Counted from the stretch's first letter, positions 1-12,328 are shown. The stretch is DNA of 27,448 bases from a virus (IMGVR_UViG_2558860288_000005); one strand, 5' to 3'. Notes: generated by a model not told the origin, from the sequence alone. Made by a program: numbers and translations.

Positions 1-432
1 GTGGGTGAAGTCTTCAACAGCATCTGGGACTGCAAACAACTGATTGAAGAGCAACTCATCGATTATATCCGCACCACGCTGACCCATGCAGGCGGAATTA
101 CCGGTATGCGCCGGATTGCCGATTTTGCTTCGCTGTATCAGGTACGTACTGGCTCACACGGTCCTTCCGATTTGTCACCAGTCTGCATGGCTGCGGCGCT
201 GCACTTTGATCTGTGGGTCCCCAATTTCGGTGTCCAGGAATACATGGGTTATTCCGAACAAATGCTCGAAGTCTTCCCGCACAACTGGACTTTCGATAAC
301 GGCTATATGCATCCGGGAGACAAACCGGGTCTTGGTATCGAATTCGATGAAAAGCTGGCGGCGAAATATCCCTATGAACCTGCTTATCTACCAGTCGCAC
401 GTCTGGAAGATGGCACGCTGTGGAACTGGTAA
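1..432 (+). CDS. rspA: Starvation-sensing protein RspA (enolase-superfamily dehydratase), C-terminal part; 5' end lies outside the window
   Basis: ORF runs from the window edge; C-terminal sequence ...[38 protein letters not shown] recognised as RspA; immediately upstream of rspB as in K-12. Confidence 0.8.
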
Positions 433-443
433 GGAGTAAGATA

Positions 444-1463
444 ATGAAAAGCATATTAATTGAAAAACCGAATCAACTGGCGATTGTCGAACGTGAAATA
501 CCCACCCCGTCAGCGGGTGAAGTACGAGTAAAAGTGAAACTTGCCGGAATTTGTGGTTCAGATAGCCATATTTATCGTGGGCATAATCCTTTTGCGAAAT
601 ATCCGCGCGTCATTGGTCATGAATTCTTTGGCGTCATTGATGCAGTGGATGAAGGCGTGGAAAGCGCCAGAGTCGGTGAACGTGTTGCTGTCGATCCGGT
701 GGTCAGCTGTGGGCATTGCTATCCGTGCTCTATAGGTAAACCGAACGTTTGTACGACACTGGCTGTATTAGGTGTGCACGCTGACGGTGGTTTCAGTGAA
801 TATGCCGTGGTTCCGGCAAAAAATGCGTGGAAAATTCCTGAAGCAGTGGCCGATCAATATGCGGTAATGATCGAACCTTTTACCATTGCGGCTAACGTAA
901 CCGGACATGGTCAACCGACTGAAAATGATACCGTTCTGGTTTATGGTGCCGGTCCAATCGGCCTGACGATCGTTCAGGTATTAAAAGGCGTCTATAACGT
1001 TAAAAATGTGATTGTTGCCGATCGCATTGATGAACGACTGGAAAAAGCGAAAGAGAGCGGGGCTGACTGGGCGATTAATAACAGCCAGACACCGCTTGGC
1101 GAGATTTTCACTGAAAAAGGCATCAAGCCGACATTAATTATCGATGCGGCTTGTCATCCTTCTATCCTGAAAGAGGCCGTAACGCTGGCTTCTCCAGCGG
1201 CACGTATTGTATTGATGGGGTTCTCCAGTGAACCGTCTGAAGTGATTCAGCAAGGAATTACCGGAAAAGAACTCTCTATTTTCTCTTCACGCTTAAATGC
1301 AAATAAATTCCCGATCGTTATCGACTGGTTAAGTAAAGGGTTAATTAAACCAGAAAAATTAATTACCCATACGTTTGATTTCCAGCATGTTGCTGATGCC
1401 ATTAGTTTATTTGAACAGGATCAAAAACATTGCTGCAAAGTCTTACTCACTTTTTCTGAATAA
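444..1463 (+). CDS. rspB: Zn-dependent alcohol dehydrogenase family protein RspB
   Basis: 339-aa product from the ATG at 444 (MKSILIEKPNQ...) with AAGGAG Shine-Dalgarno at 431-436; GHEFFG and Cys-rich zinc motifs of the MDR family; the track ORF starts 8 codons earlier. Confidence 0.9.
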   Translation: MKSILIEKPNQLAIVEREIPTPSAGEVRVKVKLAGICGSDSHIYRGHNPFAKYPRVIGHEFFGVIDAVDEGVESARVGERVAVDPVVSCGHCYPCSIGKPNVCTTLAVLGVHADGGFSEYAVVPAKNAWKIPEAVADQYAVMIEPFTIAANVTGHGQPTENDTVLVYGAGPIGLTIVQVLKGVYNVKNVIVADRIDERLEKAKESGADWAINNSQTPLGEIFTEKGIKPTLIIDAACHPSILKEAVTLASPAARIVLMGFSSEPSEVIQQGITGKELSIFSSRLNANKFPIVIDWLSKGLIKPEKLITHTFDFQHVADAISLFEQDQKHCCKVLLTFSE

Positions 1464-1520
1464 TACCAATAACGGCGAGTAAGTAGTACGCATCTTACCT
1501 CTTTTTTAGAGATAACCATT

Positions 1521-1631
1521 ATGACAATAGAAAAACACGAAAGAAGCACTAAGGATTTGGTGAAAGCAGCAGTATCGGGATGGCTGGGCACTGCGCTTGA
1601 ATTTATGGATTTCAAGAGTCATGCGTGTTAA
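1521..1631 (+). pseudogene. ydfJ: 5' fragment of MFS transporter gene ydfJ, severed by prophage insertion (bacterial part ends at the att core near 1613; the ORF then reads into phage DNA to a stop)
   Basis: Short ORF MTIEKHERSTKDLVKAAVSGWLGTALEFMDFKSHAC; its LEFMDF end is duplicated as the MDFQ start of the 26165 ORF, which continues as the rest of the MFS transporter. Confidence 0.6.
1599..1613. other. attL core (prophage left junction) GAATTTATGGATTTC
   Basis: Same 14-15 bp sequence (one T fewer) recurs at 26160-26173; the flanks join to give an uninterrupted ydfJ reading frame. Confidence 0.55.
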
Positions 1632-1650
1632 CTATTTGATAAATATTAAA

Positions 1651-2946
1651 TTAATTTTTCATTGCTTCGTTATGGGGCATGGTTGGGGCAAACTCGCTTA
1701 ACTGTGTATTTAACAAAGCTACCTGTGCATTATTGTTTTCAGACATCCATTTTCCGTATACCTGAAATACCATTTGCGCATCTGCATGGCCCATCTGGTT
1801 TGCTATAAATGCCGGGTTAGCACCAGCTGTCAGCGACCAGCAGGCATAAGTATGTCTCGACTGATATGATTTTCGATGGCGGAGTCCGGCACGTTTTATC
1901 GCTGCGTCCCACATCTGCCTTATTGAGTCAACGGTAAAATGGTCACCATAATTTTTTACTCTCGCTGACACTTCAGGTTGAAAAACAAAGGTGCATTTTT
2001 GTTTTTCTGTTCTGCCATACTCTCTGAGGTGAACATCAATGATATGCTCTTTGCTCAGTCTCGTTAATGTCATCTGACTCCGGAGAGCGTCGATTGCTGG
2101 CTTAATAAGATGAATGACCCGATTGGTTCCCGCCTGTGTTTTTGGTACCGTGAAACGGTCTTTTGCTAAATTTCTCCTGATCATCATTGTTCCATTTTTC
2201 AGATCTATGTCCTCCCATCCAAGTGCACACAGCTCACCAGGGCGAACTCCAGTATAAACAGAAACACACCATAAATTTTTTGCTTGCTGATTTCTGCACG
2301 CATCGATAAGACGGATAAATTCTTCCCGCGAAAGAGGATCCGGAATGGTTCTTGATTCCTTTAATGGCGAGATCCCCTTAAACGGATTATCTGCCAGGTA
2401 ACCGTTATCAACACCAAACTGGAACACGGCGTTAAGATTTGTCATGTAATTATTTACAGTTACAGCCGATCTCCCTGGTTGTGTAACAATATAGTTACTT
2501 TTGGGGATCTGGTATCCAGTCAGTAACTCTTTACGAACCTCCAGTAATTTTTCTTTATTAATCGATGAGGCAAGATTTTTTTCACCGATTATGCTCAGGA
2601 TATTTTTGATGACGGCACGGTATGTGTTGAGTGATGTTTTGGCGACTTCAGTTTCTTTCAGTGCCAGAAATTTTTCAGCCAGTTCTTTTATGGTTAAATC
2701 TTGTCGGGCCTCACCAAATTTTTCCAGATTGCGTGAGGAGGGAAACTGTTTTGCATAGTCGAAAACACCAGTTTTTATTGCGTAACAAACAGAGGAGCGT
2801 AGTTCACCTGCAACGCGCCTGTTTTTTGCTGTGTCAGGAACCCCCAGATTTTCCCTGACTCTTACGTCTTTATAAACAAACCAGATACGTAATTTCCCTC
2901 CATGGTTTTCCACGCCTGTCGGATATTTCATTTCAACTTCTCTCAT
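1651..2946 (-). CDS. intQ: Phage tyrosine integrase (site-specific recombinase), apparently intact
   Basis: 431-aa ORF with C-terminal tyrosine-recombinase catalytic region (R...HxxR...Y; RHTYACWSLTAGANPAFIANQMGHADAQMVFQVYGKWM); stop 30 bp from the att core. A likelier start is the second ATG at 2931 (MKYPTG...), preceded by a purine-rich stretch. Confidence 0.88.
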   Translation of the reverse strand: MREVEMKYPTGVENHGGKLRIWFVYKDVRVRENLGVPDTAKNRRVAGELRSSVCYAIKTGVFDYAKQFPSSRNLEKFGEARQDLTIKELAEKFLALKETEVAKTSLNTYRAVIKNILSIIGEKNLASSINKEKLLEVRKELLTGYQIPKSNYIVTQPGRSAVTVNNYMTNLNAVFQFGVDNGYLADNPFKGISPLKESRTIPDPLSREEFIRLIDACRNQQAKNLWCVSVYTGVRPGELCALGWEDIDLKNGTMMIRRNLAKDRFTVPKTQAGTNRVIHLIKPAIDALRSQMTLTRLSKEHIIDVHLREYGRTEKQKCTFVFQPEVSARVKNYGDHFTVDSIRQMWDAAIKRAGLRHRKSYQSRHTYACWSLTAGANPAFIANQMGHADAQMVFQVYGKWMSENNNAQVALLNTQLSEFAPTMPHNEAMKN

Positions 2947-2965
2947 TAGTTAGTGTGGCTTTTAG

Positions 2966-3217
2966 TCAAGTAAGATGACGTCTTGGTCTCGCTGATGCCT
3001 GGCGCTCAATCCAGCGATCAATTTCTTCCAGGTTGTAAAAGCATGGACTGTTATCCCATGGCATACCGTCATGAGCGACATGCTTATATTCCCTTCCTTC
3101 CATAAACGATTTTTCCCGGGCCTTTTTTAACGTACCTTTTTTTATTCCTTTCAGCGCAATTAACTGCTCTTCGGATACCCATTTGCCGGGAGAGACAATC
3201 ATGATTACTTCGCTCAT
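2966..3217 (-). CDS. Excisionase-like small DNA-binding protein (Xis)
   Basis: 83-aa ORF immediately upstream of and co-oriented with int; small basic protein typical of lambdoid excisionases. Confidence 0.65.
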   Translation of the reverse strand: MSEVIMIVSPGKWVSEEQLIALKGIKKGTLKKAREKSFMEGREYKHVAHDGMPWDNSPCFYNLEEIDRWIERQASARPRRHLT

Positions 3218-3289
3218 CGATTTCTTTATCTCTTACATCAGACGAGCGCCGGTTGCAGAATACCAGTCACAACCGGCGACAGTTGAACA

Positions 3290-5761
3290 TTAAGAATCAG
3301 CCTGACTCGGGATCAGTTTTTGCCAGATAACTGAAACGTATTTTGCCTGGTAACGGGCGTCATCAAGTGCATTATGGCGCTCACCTTCGAATGGAATAGC
3401 CGTTCTGGCATCGAAGTCTATGGCTTTCCCCAGCTCAACGATTGTGCGTACATCGCGATCGTTGTAGTAACGCCACGGGCAGGGGATCCCCTGCCGTTCG
3501 TATGAACGGCGCAAAATCGTGTTGTCGAAGTTGGCTCCATTTCCCCAAACCTGAACAAAAAATTCACCGGAGTTTTCGTCGATAAATTCTCGCAATTGTA
3601 ACAGTGCATCATCTAACGGGATTTCATCGGTCATAATGGCAGATTGCGCTTCGCGTGATTGCTTAAGCCACCATTTAATGGTGTCCCGATCAATGACTCC
3701 GCCAGCAGTTTCCAGATCGATAGTCTTACTAAATTCCGGTCCCATATCTCCGGTTTGCGGATCGAAAAATATTGCACCTATTGAGATGATCGGGGCATCA
3801 GGATTTTTTCCCATGGTTTCAAGGTCGATCATTAGATGGTCACACGTCCTGCTGGTGGATGTGATTTCGTGATGACCGTTCACCTTAATTGGGTGATCTG
3901 CCGTCTCGCCAGTTTCATTATCGCTATTGTGATGCTGATTGCCGCCAGTGTTCTCCTTGTGTGGATGTTCAGCGCCTTCCATTTCCTCCGGATCATCTTC
4001 CTGAACTTCAACCTGATACTCTTCATCGAATGTTTCTTGGTATGTTGCGTCGCCCATCACCGCGCCACAATCAGGGCAGTTGCCGCCGCCGGTCTGACCG
4101 CAGGCGGTGCAGACTTTTTCCACTTCCTGTTGCGCTACTGGTTCAGGCTGTTTCGTTTCTGGCTCGTTTTGTAACGCATTTGGACTGTTTTGTTCCGCTT
4201 TTTGGTAGTTCCGTTCCGATTCATGCTGGTTCTGGTTCACAGAATCGCGGGTCTGGAGCCCCTTAACCCATTTCGGATCATTCGGGTCACTAATCCCTTC
4301 AACAAATTCACCACGTGATGCAGCAAGCAACTTATCGGCGTCAGGCTGGCTGATATTGGCTGCCTGCATAATTTTGTTTACTTCGTCAGCGGTAACTTTT
4401 ATCGGCTCTGGTTGTTCTGAATCTTCAGCGGTATCTACATTTTGCGGTAAGCCCGTGTATGTGCCATTTTTTCGGGCAAAATATTCTTCTTTTGTGATTT
4501 CAGTGGCGCCAGCAGCCAGTGCCTTATCCAGACCAGAGAGTTTGTTTGCGCGACCGTATTTTTCTCCGTCCTTATCTGCGAAGAGGAAATAGAACGGCCC
4601 CTCACGCTCTACAGATGGTTCAGCTTCCGGCGCGGTTTCATTTTTTGGGATATCAGATACCTCAGTTTCCACTGCATCAGTTTGTGTTTCTGATGACTGG
4701 AGAACATCAACAGTGCCCAGGTCTGTTTCTTCATTCTCAAACACGCCCTTTGTCGTCAGGTATTCGCAGATATATTTGTTCAGTGCTACGGGATCTTTGT
4801 GAATGTCGATCGGACGCTCACGGACAAGGCCAAAAATAGTTTGGCGGTCGTAGCGAAGGGCATCAGGCTGTTTGCGCATTGATGCCGAGATACGCTTCCA
4901 GTCTTCGCGGTCGTTGTCGATAACTTCTTTTTTTGCCCAGCGATGGATGCTGCCGTCAATGTTTCCGGCATCCACATCACTAGGCCAGAGAGCGTAGGCC
5001 AGTTCGTCATCCAGTGTTTTCCATGTCTGCTTGTATTCGCGATGAATGGCAGCAATGACCGGGCTGATTTTTCCTGTTGAATTTTCAGTGTACTGTTGAT
5101 TGGCTCTGGCGCGGGCGAGATCAACAACAGACGTGTATTTTCCGGTTTCCTTGCGTTCACCTTCGCGACGTTTTTTCCAGATGCGCATCTCTGCCTGAAT
5201 TTCGGGCCATTTAGCACCAGGAATACATTTATGCTTAACCCACCCAATGGCGTGCAACTTAAGCTCCGGATACATGGCGTTAACTTCTGGCATTTTCATC
5301 AACGCTTCAACGATATGTCCGTCGAATGTTGCCATGTCTTCCTGCAACAATTCCTGTGCGCTAATAACCATATCAACGGTGATGTTTTCACATGTGTCGA
5401 ACTTAACCATGACAGCGTTCTGTACTTCAGGGGCCAGCTTGTCAAAAGTGACGTTCATCGGATCGGATTCAGTCTCAACCGGGACAAAAGAAGCAGACTC
5501 CTCATCCCAGCGGTTTTCCTGCATATATTCAGCATCCCATGAATCGAGGGCAGGGCGGGGTATGCCAGGTTTATCCTCGCAGACAATAAATTTATAAGCG
5601 CAGTCCTGAGCAGCCGGATAATGTTCCAGGAATTGCCAGTGAAATTTTGCTCGAGCACGGCGTTCGTCGCCAGCTTCAATGGCTGTGGCTACAGCCACAG
5701 CGCCTTCTTCCCTTGTTGCCAGTTCGTCAGGAATAGCGGCGCAAATAAAGACTTTACTCAT
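3290..5761 (-). CDS. ydfE: Large prophage exonuclease (full-length YdfE-like; often annotated exodeoxyribonuclease VIII-like) with central CxxC-x7-CxxC zinc ribbon and C-terminal DnaQ-type DEDDh exonuclease motifs
   Basis: Track ORF 3290..5797; likely start is the ATG at 5761 (MSKVFICAAIPD...), preceded by GAGGT. C-terminal motifs MIDLETMG, WGNGANFD, HNALDDARY match Exo I/II/III of DEDDh nucleases; zinc ribbon CTACGQTGGGNCPDCG; long acidic low-complexity linker. Confidence 0.75.
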   Translation of the reverse strand: MSKVFICAAIPDELATREEGAVAVATAIEAGDERRARAKFHWQFLEHYPAAQDCAYKFIVCEDKPGIPRPALDSWDAEYMQENRWDEESASFVPVETESDPMNVTFDKLAPEVQNAVMVKFDTCENITVDMVISAQELLQEDMATFDGHIVEALMKMPEVNAMYPELKLHAIGWVKHKCIPGAKWPEIQAEMRIWKKRREGERKETGKYTSVVDLARARANQQYTENSTGKISPVIAAIHREYKQTWKTLDDELAYALWPSDVDAGNIDGSIHRWAKKEVIDNDREDWKRISASMRKQPDALRYDRQTIFGLVRERPIDIHKDPVALNKYICEYLTTKGVFENEETDLGTVDVLQSSETQTDAVETEVSDIPKNETAPEAEPSVEREGPFYFLFADKDGEKYGRANKLSGLDKALAAGATEITKEEYFARKNGTYTGLPQNVDTAEDSEQPEPIKVTADEVNKIMQAANISQPDADKLLAASRGEFVEGISDPNDPKWVKGLQTRDSVNQNQHESERNYQKAEQNSPNALQNEPETKQPEPVAQQEVEKVCTACGQTGGGNCPDCGAVMGDATYQETFDEEYQVEVQEDDPEEMEGAEHPHKENTGGNQHHNSDNETGETADHPIKVNGHHEITSTSRTCDHLMIDLETMGKNPDAPIISIGAIFFDPQTGDMGPEFSKTIDLETAGGVIDRDTIKWWLKQSREAQSAIMTDEIPLDDALLQLREFIDENSGEFFVQVWGNGANFDNTILRRSYERQGIPCPWRYYNDRDVRTIVELGKAIDFDARTAIPFEGERHNALDDARYQAKYVSVIWQKLIPSQADS

Positions 5762-7175: not shown

Positions 7176-7331
7176 TCACTCACCTGAGTTTCTTTCCAGC
7201 CAGCGACGGGCACCATTTTCGGTTTTAAACGTTTTGCTTTTGGTATACGTCATTGCGGTGAACGTGCCGTCCTGGTTTGGAAACACGCCGTACACCAGAG
7301 ATTCGTTGTTGCCAAGATCGATAGTATCCAT
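7176..7331 (-). CDS. ydfA: Small protein YdfA (51 aa), first gene of the dicB operon
   Basis: Internal ATG at 7331 of the 7176..7409 track ORF gives MDTIDLGNNESLVYGVFPNQDGTFTAMTYTKSKTFKTENGARRWLERNSGE (51 aa). Confidence 0.7.
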   Translation of the reverse strand: MDTIDLGNNESLVYGVFPNQDGTFTAMTYTKSKTFKTENGARRWLERNSGE

Positions 7332-7411
7332 GCTGACCTCATTTCCCCTTAACGCTGGGGTAGCGGAACTGTTTGCTGAGAACACCGTGCGGTGTGTTGA
7401 TGCAAACAAGA

Positions 7412-7425
7412 TTAGCCATGACTAA
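7412..7425. promoter_or_regulatory. Candidate DicA operator at the dicB-operon promoter (TTAGCCATGACTAA; TTAG-N6-CTAA)
   Basis: Near-palindrome between dicA and ydfA; same architecture as two sites in the dicA-dicC intergenic region. Confidence 0.4.
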
Positions 7426-7497
7426 CATATCGGTCAAGTGATTTTGTATGCTATAGCTAACATAATTGATGTGGTAAAAGATAACTCATTGATGATG

Positions 7498-7905
7498 TTA
7501 TCTTTTATTTGTCCGCTGACGGGCTTTTAGTAATTCTTCAAAGAGTTTATTGAAGTTTTTTACTCGAGCTCGCATTTCGGCGAGCTGGGTATCCTGTTCT
7601 GATTCTGGCAGTGCATTAAACAGCTCAAGGAGCTCTAGTTCTTTGGGGGATAAGGCAACTGGCTTCTCAACAGGTGGTGTTGGTTGCTTGTCTTCATCGC
7701 CAAATAGAATCCATGTTGGTGAGCATTGCAATACTTTGCTGAGGGCAAAAAGGTTCTTCCCTGTAGGTTCACTATCACCCCGTTCCCATTGTGATACAGA
7801 CACATGGGAGATTTTCAGGGCTTTAGCAAGAGACCTTTGGGTGTGTTTGAGGTTTTTCCGACGATACCTGATGCGTTCGCCGATAGTTAAATTTTTTGTT
7901 TCCAT
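7498..7905 (-). CDS. dicA: HTH (XRE-family) repressor DicA, cI-like repressor of the dicB operon
   Basis: 135-aa ORF; N-terminal HTH QRSLAKALKISHVSVSQWERG; divergent from dicC. Confidence 0.9.
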   Translation of the reverse strand: METKNLTIGERIRYRRKNLKHTQRSLAKALKISHVSVSQWERGDSEPTGKNLFALSKVLQCSPTWILFGDEDKQPTPPVEKPVALSPKELELLELFNALPESEQDTQLAEMRARVKNFNKLFEELLKARQRTNKR

Positions 7906-7907
7906 AG

Positions 7908-7971
7908 TTAGCTAATGCTAAATCGTATTGACTATGTTTTTGTTAACATCTATCTTGTTAGTTATGACTAA
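7908..7971. promoter_or_regulatory. dicA/dicC divergent promoter-operator region with two TTAG-N6-CTAA palindromes (TTAGCTAATGCTAA at 7908-7921; TTAGTTATGACTAA at 7958-7971)
   Basis: Two near-perfect palindromes in the 83-bp gap between divergent repressor genes, analogous to OR sites of lambdoid immunity regions. Confidence 0.5.
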
Positions 7972-7988
7972 CAATAAAGGTGTTTTAA

Positions 7989-8237
7989 ATGCTTAAAACT
8001 GACGCTCTTTTGTATTTCGGTTCAAAAACAAAACTTGCACAAGCAGCAGGTATTCGTTTGGCTTCGCTTTATAGCTGGAAAGGGGATTTAGTTCCCGAAG
8101 GTCGCGCGATGCGTCTATTCGGCAGGTTAAACGTCTGGTGCAACGGTATAGAAATGAAGGGCCTTCTGGTCTGGTTTCCCACCGACGTGGAAAGCGTCCT
8201 AATAATTCCTTTTCTACTGAATTCAGAGCAACAGTAA
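7989..8237 (+). pseudogene. dicC: dicC (Cro-like regulator) whose 3' part appears replaced by transposase-derived sequence
   Basis: N-terminal ~43 aa (MLKTDALLYFGSKTKLAQAAGIRLASLYSWKGDLVPEGRAMRL) match DicC as I recall it; from about 8117 the same DNA encodes, in another frame, a transposase HTH segment, so the ORF tail is probably out-of-frame read-through. Confidence 0.5.
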
Positions 8238-9340
8238 TTTCACTCCTCAAAGGCCGTTACGCTGATTTTGGACCTACGTTTGCGTGCGAAAAATTGCGCG
8301 AGATACACGGTTTATCTTTATCCGTTGAAACTCTCAGAAAGTGGATGATAGAAGAGGGGTTATGGCGTGAACGCCGTCGTAAAATTGCCCGTATATATCA
8401 ACGCCGCATGCGACGACCATCTTACGGTGAACTGATCCAGATTGATGGCTCACCTCATGACTGGTTTGAAAATCGAGGCCCCAGATGTACACTGATCGTT
8501 TTCATTGATGATGCCACCAGTGCGTTGATGGCGTTGCGTTTTGTGCCTGCTGAAACAACCCGGGCTTACATGGAAACCCTCCGGGGTTACCTTAATGATC
8601 ATGGCGTACCGCTCGCTCTCTACTCTGATAGACACAGTATATTCAGGGTAAATAACCCAGAGCGGGAAGGTGAGCTGACCCAGTTCACTCGTGCGATAAA
8701 GACACTGGGCATCGAGCCAATCCATGCCAACAGCCCGCAGGCAAAAGGGCGGGTAGAGCGCGCCAATCAGACACTACAGGACAGGCTGGTCAAAGAAATG
8801 CGGCTTCAGAATATCAGTGATATTGAAACAGCAAATGCATGGTTGCCGACCTTTATTGAAGCCTATAACAACCGGTTCGCTACGTCGCCTCGTACTACTG
8901 ATAATGCTCATCTTGATGTGCACCATTCTGAAGAGGAACTGGGTTATATCTTCAGCCTACAGGCGAAGCGCGTTCTGTCTAAAAATCTCACTTTCCAGTA
9001 CAAAAGCAGTGCGTTTCAGGTACGCAGTGAGGGCCGGGGATATCGACTTAGGCATTCGGTTGTTACTGTATGCGAGAACTTTGACGGTGAAATTAACGTT
9101 CTGTATGACGGGAAAGCGCTGGGCTGGGAAAAGTATGTTGATGGCCCGGAGCCTATACCACTGGATGATGAAAAGAGTGTCCATGAACGAGTGGATAATG
9201 CCCGTATTGATTTACGCTCAAAATACTATGTTAAACCTAAAGCTGACCATCCCTGGCTTACGCGCCGAACGCAAAGTCATCAGCAAGTTAAGCCCCCGAA
9301 GTTACCTAAAAAGAAGCCTGATCCCGATAAAAAAGATTGA
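8138..9340 (+). mobile_element. DDE integrase-core (rve-type) transposase gene, IS481/ISNCY-like, apparently 5'-truncated; homologous to the K-12 ydfW/ydfX (intK) remnants
   Basis: 400-aa ORF from a GTG; in-frame upstream peptide ...SIRQVKRLVQRYRNEGPSGLVSHRRGKR resembles a transposase HTH but has no ATG; integrase-core motifs IDGSPHDWF, ALYSDRHSIF, GRVERANQTLQ. IS ends not identified. Confidence 0.65.
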
Positions 9341-9734
9341 AACCAAGATCGATTCGGTTGAGTGCATATCCATTCATAGGGTAGATTCTTAAGTCGCGTT
9401 TCTGGTGTTCATTTTCGGGTGGTTTGTTACTTGTTTTACCGGGGATATGCCAGAAACGCGCTGAGTCAGTCTGGGCGGTGCGCGTAATGAGGCGTTATGG
9501 TAAATAGCCTATGCTAATGTCCGCTAAGAGCAAGAAGCGGAAGTTGGCAGTTTTGTGGACTGTCCCCACAAAAGTGACTACAGAAATAGTTGCAATTCAT
9601 AATTGATCATGGGTTGTCAGTTAAACTCGTGGCGATTTAAATAGACTAATTGGGAGTGCGTCCATTACTTATATCTTGTAATGTTAACTATCAGAAATGA
9701 TACAAAGATAATATGTCTTTAAAGAAAAGGCTGA

Positions 9735-9762
9735 TGGCGAAAAGTGGCCCGATGAGGGCCAC
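9735..9762 (-). terminator. Probable intrinsic terminator of flxA
   Basis: Stem GTGGCCC/GGGCCAC (9744-9750 / 9756-9762) with 5-nt loop, followed on the minus strand by a TTTT run, just past the flxA stop. Confidence 0.45.
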
Positions 9763-9776
9763 AATACGGCTGTCAC

Positions 9777-10109
9777 TTAGACGTAAATATCAATGGTGCC
9801 AGCGGTATTTGTATCGTCTTTTTTCTCTTCTTTTTTATCAGGCTGAACTGTCGCGTCTTCATTCTTTTTCTCTGCCTGCTGCCTTAACAACTGCTCCAGT
9901 TGAGCCCAGAGGCTTTCAATTTGCTTCTGTACCAATGCAGCCATTTCTTTTTTCTGCTGTGTCGTCATCCCCTCTTCCGATGAGATTTTCCCAAGCTTTT
10001 CAGTCAGCACCTGAATTTGTCTTGTGATTTTGGCTATTTCTGATGTTCCTTCCGGGGCGGAGTTGTTTGAAATAACGGTTGAGGTATTTCCCTGAATTGT
10101 GACAGACAT
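9777..10109 (-). CDS. flxA: FlxA (FliA-regulated prophage protein, 110 aa)
   Basis: 110-aa ORF MSVTIQGNTSTVISNNSAPEGTSEIAKITRQ...; a sigma-28 consensus promoter lies immediately upstream. Confidence 0.85.
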   Translation of the reverse strand: MSVTIQGNTSTVISNNSAPEGTSEIAKITRQIQVLTEKLGKISSEEGMTTQQKKEMAALVQKQIESLWAQLEQLLRQQAEKKNEDATVQPDKKEEKKDDTNTAGTIDIYV

Positions 10110-10132
10110 AGATTTCTCCTTTTAAAAAAGCA

Positions 10133-10159
10133 CTATCGGCATGCACAAAAAAATCTTTA
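10133..10159 (-). promoter_or_regulatory. Sigma-28 (FliA) promoter of flxA
   Basis: Minus strand reads TAAAGATT-N11-GCCGATAG, a close match to TAAAGTTT-N11-GCCGATAA, about 25-50 nt upstream of the flxA ATG. Confidence 0.6.
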
Positions 10160-10311
10160 ATCGTATTTCTTGTGTCATTAATTGTTTGATGTTCAGATTG
10201 TTTTCCTCGCGGGCTGGCGCGCCTCAGAAAGTAAAGCTTGTTGACAGGGGTAAACGTTCGGCAATAATTTTCTGCCGCATGCGGGTGTTGCATAAAACGT
10301 GTTACGTTCCT

Positions 10312-10617
10312 TTATCGACAGGTCAGGTCACCGCTCACCCGCCGACGAGAAAGCAACACTGACATGCTAAAGCAAAAAATAGATGAATAAGTTGAGTTGT
10401 GCATATGTAGCCTGACCGTCACAAAGTATATGGTGTCTGTACCAGTAAGATGATGGCCGGACTCTTTAAAAACGAGCTGACCTGCACAATACAGGATGGA
10501 CTTAGCAATGGCTGCTCCTGGCACAAAGCGGACAGTGATCACCGTTCTTACGACTACTTTCTGACTTCCTTCGTGACTTGCCCTAAGCATGTTGTAGTGC
10601 GATACTTGTAATGACAT
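10312..10617 (-). CDS. ydfV: Hypothetical protein, YdfV-like (101 aa)
   Basis: ORF at the K-12 ydfV position between flxA and relB; no recognisable domain and it overlaps the relBE operator region, so coding status is uncertain. Confidence 0.35.
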   Translation of the reverse strand: MSLQVSHYNMLRASHEGSQKVVVRTVITVRFVPGAAIAKSILYCAGQLVFKESGHHLTGTDTIYFVTVRLHMHNSTYSSIFCFSMSVLLSRRRVSGDLTCR

Positions 10618-10632
10618 TTGTAATTACAAGAG
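10600..10632 (+). promoter_or_regulatory. relBE promoter/operator (relO) with TTGTAAT / ATTACAA inverted hexads
   Basis: CTTGTAATGACATTTGTAATTACAAG directly upstream of the relB start codon and its AGAGGTG Shine-Dalgarno. Confidence 0.6.
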
Positions 10633-10641
10633 GTGTAAGAC

Positions 10642-10881
10642 ATGGGTAGCATTAACCTGCGTATTGACGATGAACTTAAAGCGCGTTCTTACGCCGCGCT
10701 TGAAAAAATGGGTGTAACTCCTTCTGAAGCGCTTCGTCTCATGCTCGAGTATATCGCTGACAATGAACGCTTGCCGTTCAAACAGACACTCCTGAGTGAT
10801 GAAGATGCTGAACTTGTGGAGATAGTGAAAGAACGGCTTCGTAATCCTAAGCCAGTACGTGTGACGCTGGATGAACTCTGA
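10642..10881 (+). CDS. relB: RelB antitoxin
   Basis: 79-aa product MGSINLRIDDELKARSYAALEKMGVTPSEALRLMLEYIADNERLPF...; stop overlaps the relE start. Confidence 0.95.
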   Translation: MGSINLRIDDELKARSYAALEKMGVTPSEALRLMLEYIADNERLPFKQTLLSDEDAELVEIVKERLRNPKPVRVTLDEL

Positions 10882-11168
10882 TGGCGTATTTTCTGGATTT
10901 TGACGAGCGGGCACTAAAGGAATGGCGAAAGCTGGGCTCGACGGTACGTGAACAGTTGAAAAAGAAGCTGGTTGAAGTACTTGAGTCACCCCGGATTGAA
11001 GCAAACAAGCTCCGTGGTATGCCTGATTGTTACAAGATTAAGCTCCGGTCTTCAGGCTATCGCCTTGTATACCAGGTTATAGACGAGAAAGTTGTCGTTT
11101 TCGTGATTTCTGTTGGGAAAAGAGAACGCTCGGAAGTATATAGCGAGGCGGTCAAACGCATTCTCTGA
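10881..11168 (+). CDS. relE: RelE mRNA-interferase toxin
   Basis: 95-aa product MAYFLDFDERALKEWRKLGSTVREQLKKKLVEVLESPRIEANKLRGMPDCYKIKLRSSGYRLVYQVIDEKVVVFVISVGKRERSEVY... Confidence 0.95.
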   Translation: MAYFLDFDERALKEWRKLGSTVREQLKKKLVEVLESPRIEANKLRGMPDCYKIKLRSSGYRLVYQVIDEKVVVFVISVGKRERSEVYSEAVKRIL

Positions 11169-11239
11169 ACCAAAGCATGACATCTCTGTTTCGCACCGAA
11201 GGTGACACTTCTGCTTTGCGTTGACAGGAGAAGCAGGCT

Positions 11240-11395
11240 ATGAAGCAGCAAAAGGCGATGTTAATCGCCCTGATCGTCATCTGTTTAACCGTCATAGTGA
11301 CGGCACTGGTAACGAGGAAAGACCTCTGCGAGGTACGAATCCGAACCGGCCAGACGGAGGTCGCTGTCTTCACAGCTTACGAACCTGAGGAGTAA
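11240..11395 (+). CDS. hokD: Hok-family membrane toxin HokD/RelF (51 aa)
   Basis: Below the track cut-off; my translation gives MKQQKAMLIALIVICLTVIVTALVTRKDLCEVRIRTGQTEVAVFTAYEPEE; directly downstream of relE. Confidence 0.9.
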   Translation: MKQQKAMLIALIVICLTVIVTALVTRKDLCEVRIRTGQTEVAVFTAYEPEE

Positions 11396-11463
11396 GAGAC
11401 CCGGCGGGGGAGAAATCCCTCGCCACCTCTGATGTGGCAGGCATCCTCAACGCACCCGCACTT

Positions 11464-11490
11464 AACCCGCTTCGGCGGGTTTTTGTTTTT
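11464..11490 (+). terminator. Intrinsic terminator after hokD
   Basis: AACCCGC-TTCG-GCGGG followed by TTTTTGTTTTT. Confidence 0.6.
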
Positions 11491-11611
11491 ATTTTCAACG
11501 CGTTTGAAGTTCTGGACGGTGCCGGAATAGAATCAAAAATACTTAAGTAGCGCGCAGGGATAAGAGGGATGGTCCCTTAAAGGGGAGAGCTAATTATCCG
11601 GAAGGATTCTG

Positions 11612-12328
11612 ATGATGAACATCGAAGAACTGCGTAAAATTTTTTGTGAAGATGGCCTCTATGCTGTGTGCGTTGAAATGGCAGCGCAGGGGATGGTGCA
11701 GTCGAAAGCACCACTTGGGTTGGCCTTATTTCTGGCAAAAGTTGGTCTTCAGGACCCTCAGTTTGCGATTGAAGGCCTGCTAAATTACGCGATGGCACTG
11801 GATAACCCGACATTGAACAAATTGAGTGAAGAAATCCGGTTACAGATTATTCCTTACCTCGTGAGTTTTGCCTTTGCTGATTACTCCAGGTCTGCGGCAA
11901 GTAAGGCTCGCTGTGAGCATTGTTCAGGTACGGGATTTTATAATGTATTGCGCGAAGTGGTGAAACACTACAGACGCGGGGAATCTGTAATCAAGGAAGA
12001 ATGGGTGAAGGAACTATGTCAGCATTGCCATGGTAAGGGCGAAGCCAGCACAGCGTGCAGAGGGTGTAAGGGTAAAGGGATTGTTCTGGATGAAAAAAGA
12101 ACCCGGTTTCATGGCGTACCGGTATATAAGATTTGTGGGCGTTGTAATGGAAACCGGTTTAGTCGTTTACCGACCACGCTGGCACGACGTCATGTCCAGA
12201 AGCTGGTACCAGACCTGACCGATTATCAGTGGTATAAGGGGTATGCGGACGTCATTGGTAAACTGGTAACAAAGTGCTGGCAGGAAGAAGCATACGCGGA
12301 AGCGCAATTGAGGAAGGTGACGAGATAA
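11612..12328 (+). CDS. quuQ: Late-gene antitermination protein Q (Cys-rich zinc-binding Q family)
   Basis: 238-aa ORF with CxxC clusters (CEHCSGTG, CQHCHGKG, CRGCKGKG, CGRCNG); located upstream of the late/lysis region. Confidence 0.85.
   Translation: MMNIEELRKIFCEDGLYAVCVEMAAQGMVQSKAPLGLALFLAKVGLQDPQFAIEGLLNYAMALDNPTLNKLSEEIRLQIIPYLVSFAFADYSRSAASKARCEHCSGTGFYNVLREVVKHYRRGESVIKEEWVKELCQHCHGKGEASTACRGCKGKGIVLDEKRTRFHGVPVYKICGRCNGNRFSRLPTTLARRHVQKLVPDLTDYQWYKGYADVIGKLVTKCWQEEAYAEAQLRKVTR

Follow-up and report, generated by a model that had tools for sequence, protein, structure and literature searches.

Insertion sequences (ISs) of the IS1202 family end in imperfect terminal repeats of about 22-29 bp, of the form 5'-TGT...ACA-3', and duplicate 3-5 bp or more than 15 bp of their target, or none of it; for ISEsa1, an element of 1,609 bp, neither a target duplication nor a target has been reported (Harmer & Hall 2023, PMC10132070). 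In the Qin prophage of E. coli K-12, the genes dicA-dicC-ydfX-ydfW(intK)-flxA-ydfV-relBE-hokD follow one another, and according to the account of Ramisetty & Santhosh 2016 that is cited in PMC6379469, relBE was proposed to have integrated beside hokD and thereby to have shortened an ancestral mok/hok unit. Here we describe a Qin-type lambdoid prophage in a stretch of viral DNA of 27,448 nucleotides (IMGVR_UViG_2558860288_000005, hereafter the window), in which the Cro-like repressor gene dicC runs directly into a transposase gene (tnp) that lacks its start. It is the same prophage as K-12 Qin, with the same insertion at hokD and with 99.9-100% DNA identity in the common parts, but it has suffered a different deletion: K-12 has an intact dicC, whereas the window has lost the 3' end of dicC and keeps 407 transposase codons. 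We consider the dicC-transposase junction to be a deletion scar in a decaying prophage that had earlier received an IS1202-family transposon at hokD, and we assign this explanation as a whole a probability of about 0.85.

The remaining part of dicC occupies positions 7989 to 8117 (+ strand), where codons 1-43 agree with K-12 DicC at all 43 residues. These codons open a chimeric open reading frame (ORF) of 82 amino acids (aa) at 7989-8237 (+ strand), which continues for 39 codons out of frame through the transposase gene and shows no relation to K-12 DicC after residue 43. Its product reaches 70.4 bits with the DicC model NF007282, for which the cutoff is 130, and covers positions 1-42 of 75 only, while its match to Pfam P22_Cro is confined to positions 2-41 of 60. 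The DNA from 7401 to 8117 is 100% identical to that of strain LR-03 and 99.86% identical to that of K-12. Thus the initial annotation, which described a gene matching DicC for about 43 residues and disrupted at its 3' end, was right on both points, and the 82-aa ORF is no full-length DicC. In a PDB sequence match, residues 1-59 of full-length DicC align to P22 Cro (PDB 1RZS); since the last third of this P22-Cro-like fold is gone, the truncated product (DicC') is predicted from sequence to be probably inactive.

On the other side of the junction lies the 5'-truncated gene of an IS1202-family, ISEsa1-like transposase (8117-9340, + strand). Its frame is open from 8075, immediately after a TAG stop at 8072-8074, runs to 9340, and matches the transposase model at E=9.6e-133; homology to full-length relatives begins at S14 of the frame counted from 8075, which corresponds to window base 8114-8117. 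No ATG is present in this frame before 8345, from which gene callers predict a product of 331 aa, and the first possible start is a GTG at 8138, which gives a 400-aa ORF ending at 9340. Relatives in the databases have 446-447 aa, and the copy of strain N61 has 437 aa, with an in-frame gap of 9 residues in the N-terminal helix-turn-helix (HTH); measured against the 437-aa Qin form, the window therefore lacks the first 30 codons, and against the 446-aa form it lacks 39. That the gene is truncated at its 5' end and start-less, and lies in another frame from about 8117 with a stop at 8072, had been noted initially and is borne out by the ORF lists and by the relatives. Its placement as IS481-like did not stand, since the IS481 model NF033577 gives 113.6 bits against a cutoff of 224 (E=1e-32), whereas the ISNCY model NF033594, with a cutoff of 250, gives 442.9 bits and is covered from position 22 to 365 of 368, the N-terminus being absent. 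In other genomes the gene is labelled by the Prokaryotic Genome Annotation Pipeline (PGAP) as an 'ISNCY family' or an 'IS1202-like element ISEsa1 family' transposase. A distant relation to the IS481 family is seen in the rve-type DDE core and the N-terminal HTH, but the transposase here is larger and has a C-terminal extension, and its ends and target duplication are of the IS1202 type.

The residues D124, D185 and E228, found in the contexts IQIDGSP, LYSDRHS and GRVERANQ, are invariant in the alignment to the 437/446-aa relatives, and these motif contexts suggest that they form the DDE catalytic triad. The C-terminus of the protein is intact, with a tail that is conserved in the 446-aa relatives and represents the C-terminal domain of the family. 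In N61, PGAP annotates ydfW at 7256-7405 (L004), with frame and stop shared with the 437-aa ORF, and what corresponds to K-12 ydfW in the window (9191-9340, + strand) is the final 49-codon stretch of the transposase ORF, with which it has frame and stop in common. The 'missing C-terminus' flag set by PGAP is thus an artefact, because these last 49 codons are annotated separately as ydfW and the tail is conserved in relatives.

In the relatives, dicC and the transposase gene are 0.7-3.8 kb apart, and the window corresponds to those sequences minus a deletion. Strain N61 (bovine mastitis, Japan) is 100% identical to window positions 1-24000 except for 3,761 extra bases at the junction. Its dicC breaks off at the very same nucleotide, with a truncation at codon 43 in the annotation, and is joined to the 3' end of ydaT (GCGTCTA/TCCGG, where the slash marks the junction); replication and nin-region genes come after this junction, and then the IS. 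The N61 junction sequence TCTATCCGG and the transposase sequence TCTATTCGG form a direct repeat matching at 8 of 9 bases, and a deletion between the two gives exactly the GCGTCTATTCGG of the window. [quoted passage not shown] BLAST breakpoints place the deletion junction of the window at 8114-8118, with the microhomology TCTA when compared with LR-03, or TCTAT within the 8/9 repeat when compared with N61. K-12 carries a separate deletion of 1,368 bp, from the ydaT fragment to about transposase codon 377 (window 9156), which leaves ydfX and ydfW behind and dicC intact. As for the pseudogene remnants that K-12 was said to carry here, ydfW is indeed derived from the transposase, but ydfX is a YdaT-family fragment downstream of dicC and is not IS-derived. 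Around 8100 of the window there are neither IS ends nor target duplications; the left end, which lies 165 bp upstream of the break in the relatives, has been deleted here.

The transposon contains, from left to right, the transposase gene, a conserved 3' module of about 200 bp, flxA, ydfV and relBE, and has a length of 3,274 bp in the form with the 9-codon in-frame transposase deletion, or of 3,301 bp. In the window its cargo comprises flxA (9777-10109, - strand), ydfV (10312-10617, - strand) and, as the conserved part on the right-hand side, relB (10642-10881) and relE (10881-11168), which together span 10642-11168 on the + strand; all were taken from the ORF list and from the PGAP annotation of the identical N61 sequence. 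The outer right inverted repeat, ...GCGTTGACA-3' (11197-11226, - strand), is followed by the right copy of the target duplication, GGAGAAGCAGGCTAT (11227-11241, + strand), which includes the Shine-Dalgarno sequence of hokD together with the AT of its ATG start codon. The hokD gene itself (11240-11395, + strand) is intact, with 51 codons, and the transposon separates it from its sok/mok leader. The left repeat of N61, which begins with TGTTAACACC, matches the right repeat at 22 of 30 positions, the best score in the whole window on both strands (background mean 7.6, standard deviation 2.4; next-best 18). The element thus has imperfect TGT...ACA terminal repeats, as is found in the IS1202 family, the left one being deleted from the window. 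A first simple inverted-repeat scan of the flanks of the transposase gene found none; the actual right repeat is located another 1.9 kb downstream, beyond the interval of 9350-9700 that the initial annotation had named for a check.

The insertion point was determined from the sequences on both sides of the element. Upstream of the N61 transposase gene, a full-length Rfam sok/hok-leader match (RF01794, 104 bits) ends exactly where the IS-specific TGTTAAC begins; this leader is 3.27 kb upstream of hokD, with the transposon in between. Rfam sok has no match in window 7400-11600, and no leader is thus present directly upstream of hokD. The leader of N61 ends with ...GGAGAAGCAGGCTAT, to which TGTTAACACC is joined, and the window reads ...GCGTTGACA, GGAGAAGCAGGCTAT and GAAGCAGC in direct succession at hokD. 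N61 and the window together therefore define a 3,274-bp segment bracketed by a direct repeat of 15 bp, or of 16 bp where the left flank is AGGAG. Empty sites (L097, L098) have a single copy of GGAGAAGCAGGCTAT, with leader and hokD contiguous, and the uninterrupted leader-hokD sequence ...GGCAAGGAGAAGCAGGCTATGAAGCAGC is present in thousands of E. coli genomes. At 15-16 bp, the target duplication belongs to the class given as longer than 15 bp in the family. A hok-leader-like stretch (L010 67-129) was also considered as a part of the IS and was rejected, as distant family members lack it, its divergence is independent of that of the IS body, and in empty sites it runs on into hokD.

Of the 3,301-bp unit, positions 193-3301 are kept in the window, including the right repeat, and are followed by the right duplication copy and hokD. 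Since the left end is absent, and since the transposase has neither a start codon nor the start of its N-terminal HTH region, the remnant would be unable to move by itself. The proposal that this copy is closer to the ancestral element than that of K-12 is correct in so far as more of the transposase is kept; the sok leader is nevertheless lost, as are the inverted repeat and the target duplication of the left side, and intact 3,301-bp copies with a 446-aa transposase are present in other prophages.

We surveyed the right end of the element in 76 IMG/VR prophage contigs, most of which had the same target duplication, with units of 3,274 or 3,301-3,303 bp. An uninterrupted 446-aa transposase was found in 14 of them, with one unit among these showing 99.9% identity to the remnant in the window. 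Plasmid pWL374-mcr-10 has the same left repeat and transposase, and the same end with relBE and the right repeat, but a different cargo, which consists of an IS110 element, a cytochrome b gene and a CDF transporter gene. Its right end is 98.9% identical to window 10514-11231, and the protein accessions of RelB and RelE are the same as in K-12. The flanking duplication of the plasmid copy is its own, 16 bp long (GGAGATGTATGGGTCC), and starts at the GGAG of a sok leader. A third hok locus is represented by two contigs, with TGGAGGGGCTATGATG at the left junction in one (L175) and at the right junction in the other (L158). About 10 distinct hok leaders abut the left repeat at most 1 base from the hok start codon (Qin, L017, L018, L021, L024, L037, L011, L099, L175, L036), and Rfam sok matches end at the left repeat in the copies tested.

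We tentatively propose, at slightly less than even odds, that an apparently undescribed transposon of the IS1202 family, with the type II toxin-antitoxin pair relBE beside its right end and a variable cargo, inserts in one orientation, with a duplication of 15-17 bp, precisely at the start codons of hok type I toxin genes in prophages and plasmids. If this is true, the classical relB-relE-hokD (relBEF) operon of K-12 and the loss of sok/mok control at hokD would both be products of transposon insertion, and the lack of a target and of a duplication for ISEsa1 would be explained, the 1.6-kb 'IS' being only the left part of the mobile unit. The transposon context shows that relBE, a model toxin-antitoxin system, travels as transposon cargo, and would account for three oddities of K-12, namely the orphan ydfW, the co-transcription unit of relBE and hokD, and a hokD gene without antisense control. 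It also suggests a second mode of site-specific targeting in the IS1202 family, directed to hok translation-initiation regions rather than to dif sites. The literature searched, which included two papers on the IS1202 family and a 2026 survey of Hok loci but not Ramisetty & Santhosh 2016, yielded no account of this transposase, of its inverted repeats and target duplication, or of a specificity for hok starts.

Compared with described elements, the transposon resembles most closely the ISEsa1 subgroup of the IS1202 family (ISNCY in ISfinder), with which it shares a full-length transposase of 437-446 aa, in which N-terminal HTHs are combined with a DDE core and a conserved C-terminal tail, as well as TGT...ACA ends. 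Unlike ISEsa1, the unit here ends only at a distal right repeat, with about 1.7 kb of cargo in front of it, and has a 15-17-bp duplication, usually at a hok start codon; the window copy, moreover, is a left-truncated remnant. The ISAjo2 group, which targets dif/pdif sites, belongs to the same family and also inserts in a fixed orientation at a fixed distance from a short conserved site. Its target, however, is the XerC side of dif, 5 bp away and with a 5-bp duplication, whereas the target here is the hok Shine-Dalgarno sequence and start codon, with 15-17 bp duplicated. The transporter ISs (tIS) ISKpn21, ISKpn65 and ISRel10 are likewise IS1202-family elements with passenger ORFs, but their published passengers are single ORFs of unknown function, and here relBE is combined with a variable cargo (flxA-ydfV in Qin; cytochrome b and the CDF transporter on the plasmid).

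The conserved 3' non-coding module of the IS (9341-9562, + strand) has a length of about 200 bp, with a right limit that is tentative to within about 15 bp. It contains a long hairpin formed over a long range by GCGTTTCTGG...CCAGAAACGC (10-12 bp), a terminal hairpin consisting of ATGTCCGC, a loop and GCGGA, and a degenerate internal right repeat. The module is common to independent copies (L010, L011, L014, L017, L024, L033, L023, L036), which diverge just after the hairpin; the IS copies that share it are only 70-78% identical overall. Its long hairpin is conserved, with a compensatory change in just 2 of 29 pairs, and the module may provide transposase-binding sites, an internal right repeat or a structure of the 3' untranslated region. 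A reading of 9366-9545 as a degenerate hok ORF was rejected, because its translations do not resemble Hok and a BLAST comparison with a plasmid hok locus gave no match. The internal degenerate right repeat near 9545-9562 implies an IS of about 1.61 kb, in agreement with the 1,609 bp of ISEsa1, and this match tentatively suggests that ISEsa1 as held in the database is only the left part of the mobile unit. On the IncY plasmid pZPK-H29 (L014 1400-1660), a solo piece of 153 bp from the right part of the module is cut on its left by an IS26 end, which accounts for the 89%-identical unannotated plasmid matches to window 9382-9546.

In the history that we consider best, the ancestral order would have been dicA, dicC, ydaT, replication genes, nin-region genes, sok leader and hokD. 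An IS1202-family transposon would then have inserted at the hokD start codon, duplicating 15-16 bp of its target and parting hokD from the sok/mok leader. In a lineage shared with N61, a deletion of 363 bp would have removed codons 44-76 of dicC and most of ydaT. In the lineage of the window, a further deletion of 3,761 bp would have occurred between the imperfect repeats TCTATCCGG, at the earlier junction, and TCTATTCGG, at transposase codons 29-32 of the 437-aa Qin form, with loss of the tail of ydaT, of the replication genes and the sok leader, and, on the side of the transposon, of transposase codons 1-30 together with the left inverted repeat and the left copy of the target duplication. 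That two successive deletions produced the junction seems to us quite probable, and it is favoured because the dicC of N61 is already cut there and because the 8/9 repeat yields the exact junction of the window; we infer that the deletions took place in this order.

Several observations weigh against this history or parts of it. A single deletion of 695 bp from an LR-03-like ancestor with an intact dicC, a ydaT fragment and the IS left end would give the same junction independently of the truncation seen in N61, as TCTA is present at both end points. We nevertheless regard it as unlikely, given that N61 is 100% identical over 24 kb with its dicC already cut at the same nucleotide, and that the N61 junction offers the better repeat (8/9 versus 4 bp). 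LR-03, in addition, differs from the window by one nucleotide in 2,087 bp and by a nearby IS421 that is absent from the window, and it is less parsimonious for two sister lineages to have cut dicC at the same base independently. Deletion end points also recur after CTA in independent lineages, a pattern for which plain microhomology-mediated deletion is not the full explanation. As to the transposon, the limit of the basic IS could tentatively be set at the internal right repeat near 9562, and five copies have left flanks that are not hok (L020, L022, L023, L033, L131), among which L131 has a flanking repeat of 6 bp only. From these five copies, hok targeting is to be taken as a strong preference and not as a rule.

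Three other explanations were considered. The initial annotation implied that the IS had inserted into codon 43 of dicC and had then lost its 5' end, and beyond the adjacency of the two truncated genes nothing speaks for it. In the relatives, the left repeat and the target are 165 bp upstream of the break, beside the sok leader and not beside dicC, and the same hokD insertion with its target duplication occurs in strains with an intact dicC; with no IS-end sequence near 8100, and with the window equal to its relatives minus a deletion, this scenario was not borne out and is very improbable. An artefact of assembly or a chimera could be suspected from the absence of the junction from all 5,426 complete RefSeq E. 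coli genomes searched, many of which carry either half of the region. However, the exact 82-aa chimeric protein is encoded, with the same neighbours, on at least 24 contigs from independent samples (ENA, Logan, NCBI), some of them longer than 1 Mb, and has been deposited as EST62521.1 from the mastitis isolate E. coli ECC-Z. The junction is thus real, and we give an artefact hardly any credence. A functional fusion would either join the DNA-binding domain of DicC to the transposase core by frameshifting, or yield a domesticated transposase from GTG 8138 or ATG 8345. Both frames are open over 8075-8237, where a -1 shift would join them, and a 331-aa product is predicted by gene callers from ATG 8345, but no slippery heptamer is visible in the frame overlap, and programmed frameshifting from dicC' into the transposase gene was rejected on this ground. 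The N-terminal part of the HTH region is absent, the allele is rare (0 of the 5,426 complete genomes), and the junction is a recent deletion without sequence change since N61, which makes a functional product scarcely believable.

For the DicA/DicC switch, the deletion leaves dicA (7498-7905, - strand) as an intact gene for a CI-like repressor of 135 aa, which scores 234 bits with the DicA model NF007257 (cutoff 101). As in the CI-Cro switch of lambda and P22, DicA and DicC are encoded by divergent repressor genes with operators, and DicC aligns to P22 Cro; unlike in those phages, the Cro-like partner is cut here at residue 43 of 76, and the switch is expected to be one-sided. In a published ΔdicC strain, basal activity of dicBp was unchanged, spontaneous stable induction was down to 0.04%, and induction by urea and heat was weaker (10.1101/2023.04.14.536235). 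From this phenotype and the intact dicA, the dicC' allele should stabilize the repression of dicBF and not release it, leaving the switch biased toward stable repression. An effect of dicC loss on the control of the dicB operon had been anticipated and is predicted here as well, in the direction of less dicBF induction, not more. The dicC-transposase fusion is ordinary prophage decay, and it matters only as a natural dicC-null allele, which is expected to damp the induction of the toxic dicBF operon. Transcripts of the transposase remnant would come only from read-through from dicCp, for which a consensus scan gives the promoter-like site TTGACT-17-TATCTT at 7928-7956 (+ strand), in a position that agrees with published dicCp. 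Downstream of hokD, in N61 sequence identical to the window (window about 11612-11680; L004 9677-9742), the PGAP annotation has rem broken off after 22 codons and joined to a gene for antiterminator Q that lacks its 5' part, which represents a further internal deletion of the prophage. The rem product is a DicA antirepressor, and loss of rem would likewise favour dicBF repression.

The break points between dicC and the 3' end of the transposase gene all lie directly after CTA, namely after GCGTCTA, GGAGGCTA, ATTTCTA and GGAGCCTA (window 8117, 9155; L001 3668, 4033, 4363, 5401). The break site in ydaT was used independently in the lineages of N61 and K-12, and the target of the transposon itself was likewise cut after GGCTAT. 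This could be because of a hot spot, or may reflect chance together with imperfect repeats.

In many Klebsiella plasmids, the IS481-like element ISKpn28 is located about 10 bp inside the left end of this IS1202-family element (L010 139/140; L016 381-1500; H119-H130), so that the left tip stays on the hok leader and is parted from the rest of the element. Several plasmid copies (L010 1749/1750; L099 about 3075-4600; L018, L019) carry an IS110-family element precisely within the terminal hairpin of their 3' module, after GAGCGAGAT, an arrangement that resembles the targeting of inverted repeats of other transposons by IS1111/IS110 elements. Two copies in Scandinavium hiltneri H11S7 (L022 and L033) have only 1,441 bp in common, beginning with TGTTAAG... 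and ending about 30 bp after the stop codon, without the 3' module and with no obvious target duplication or right inverted repeat; they may represent a shortened version of the element, or the common part may end at a point of recombination. At window 11404-11485, an isrK-like Rfam match of 25 bits, below the gathering score of 50, was the only match in the scan of 7400-11600, and it probably corresponds to the 3' stem-loops and terminator of the hok mRNA. Finally, window 10524-10553 resembles an inverted repeat, with 17 of 30 positions matching the left repeat and a core of GCGGACAG, at the place where the relBE segment shared with the plasmid copy starts (10514). It may be that an ancestral right end had two transposase-binding sites and that the relBE cassette lies between them.

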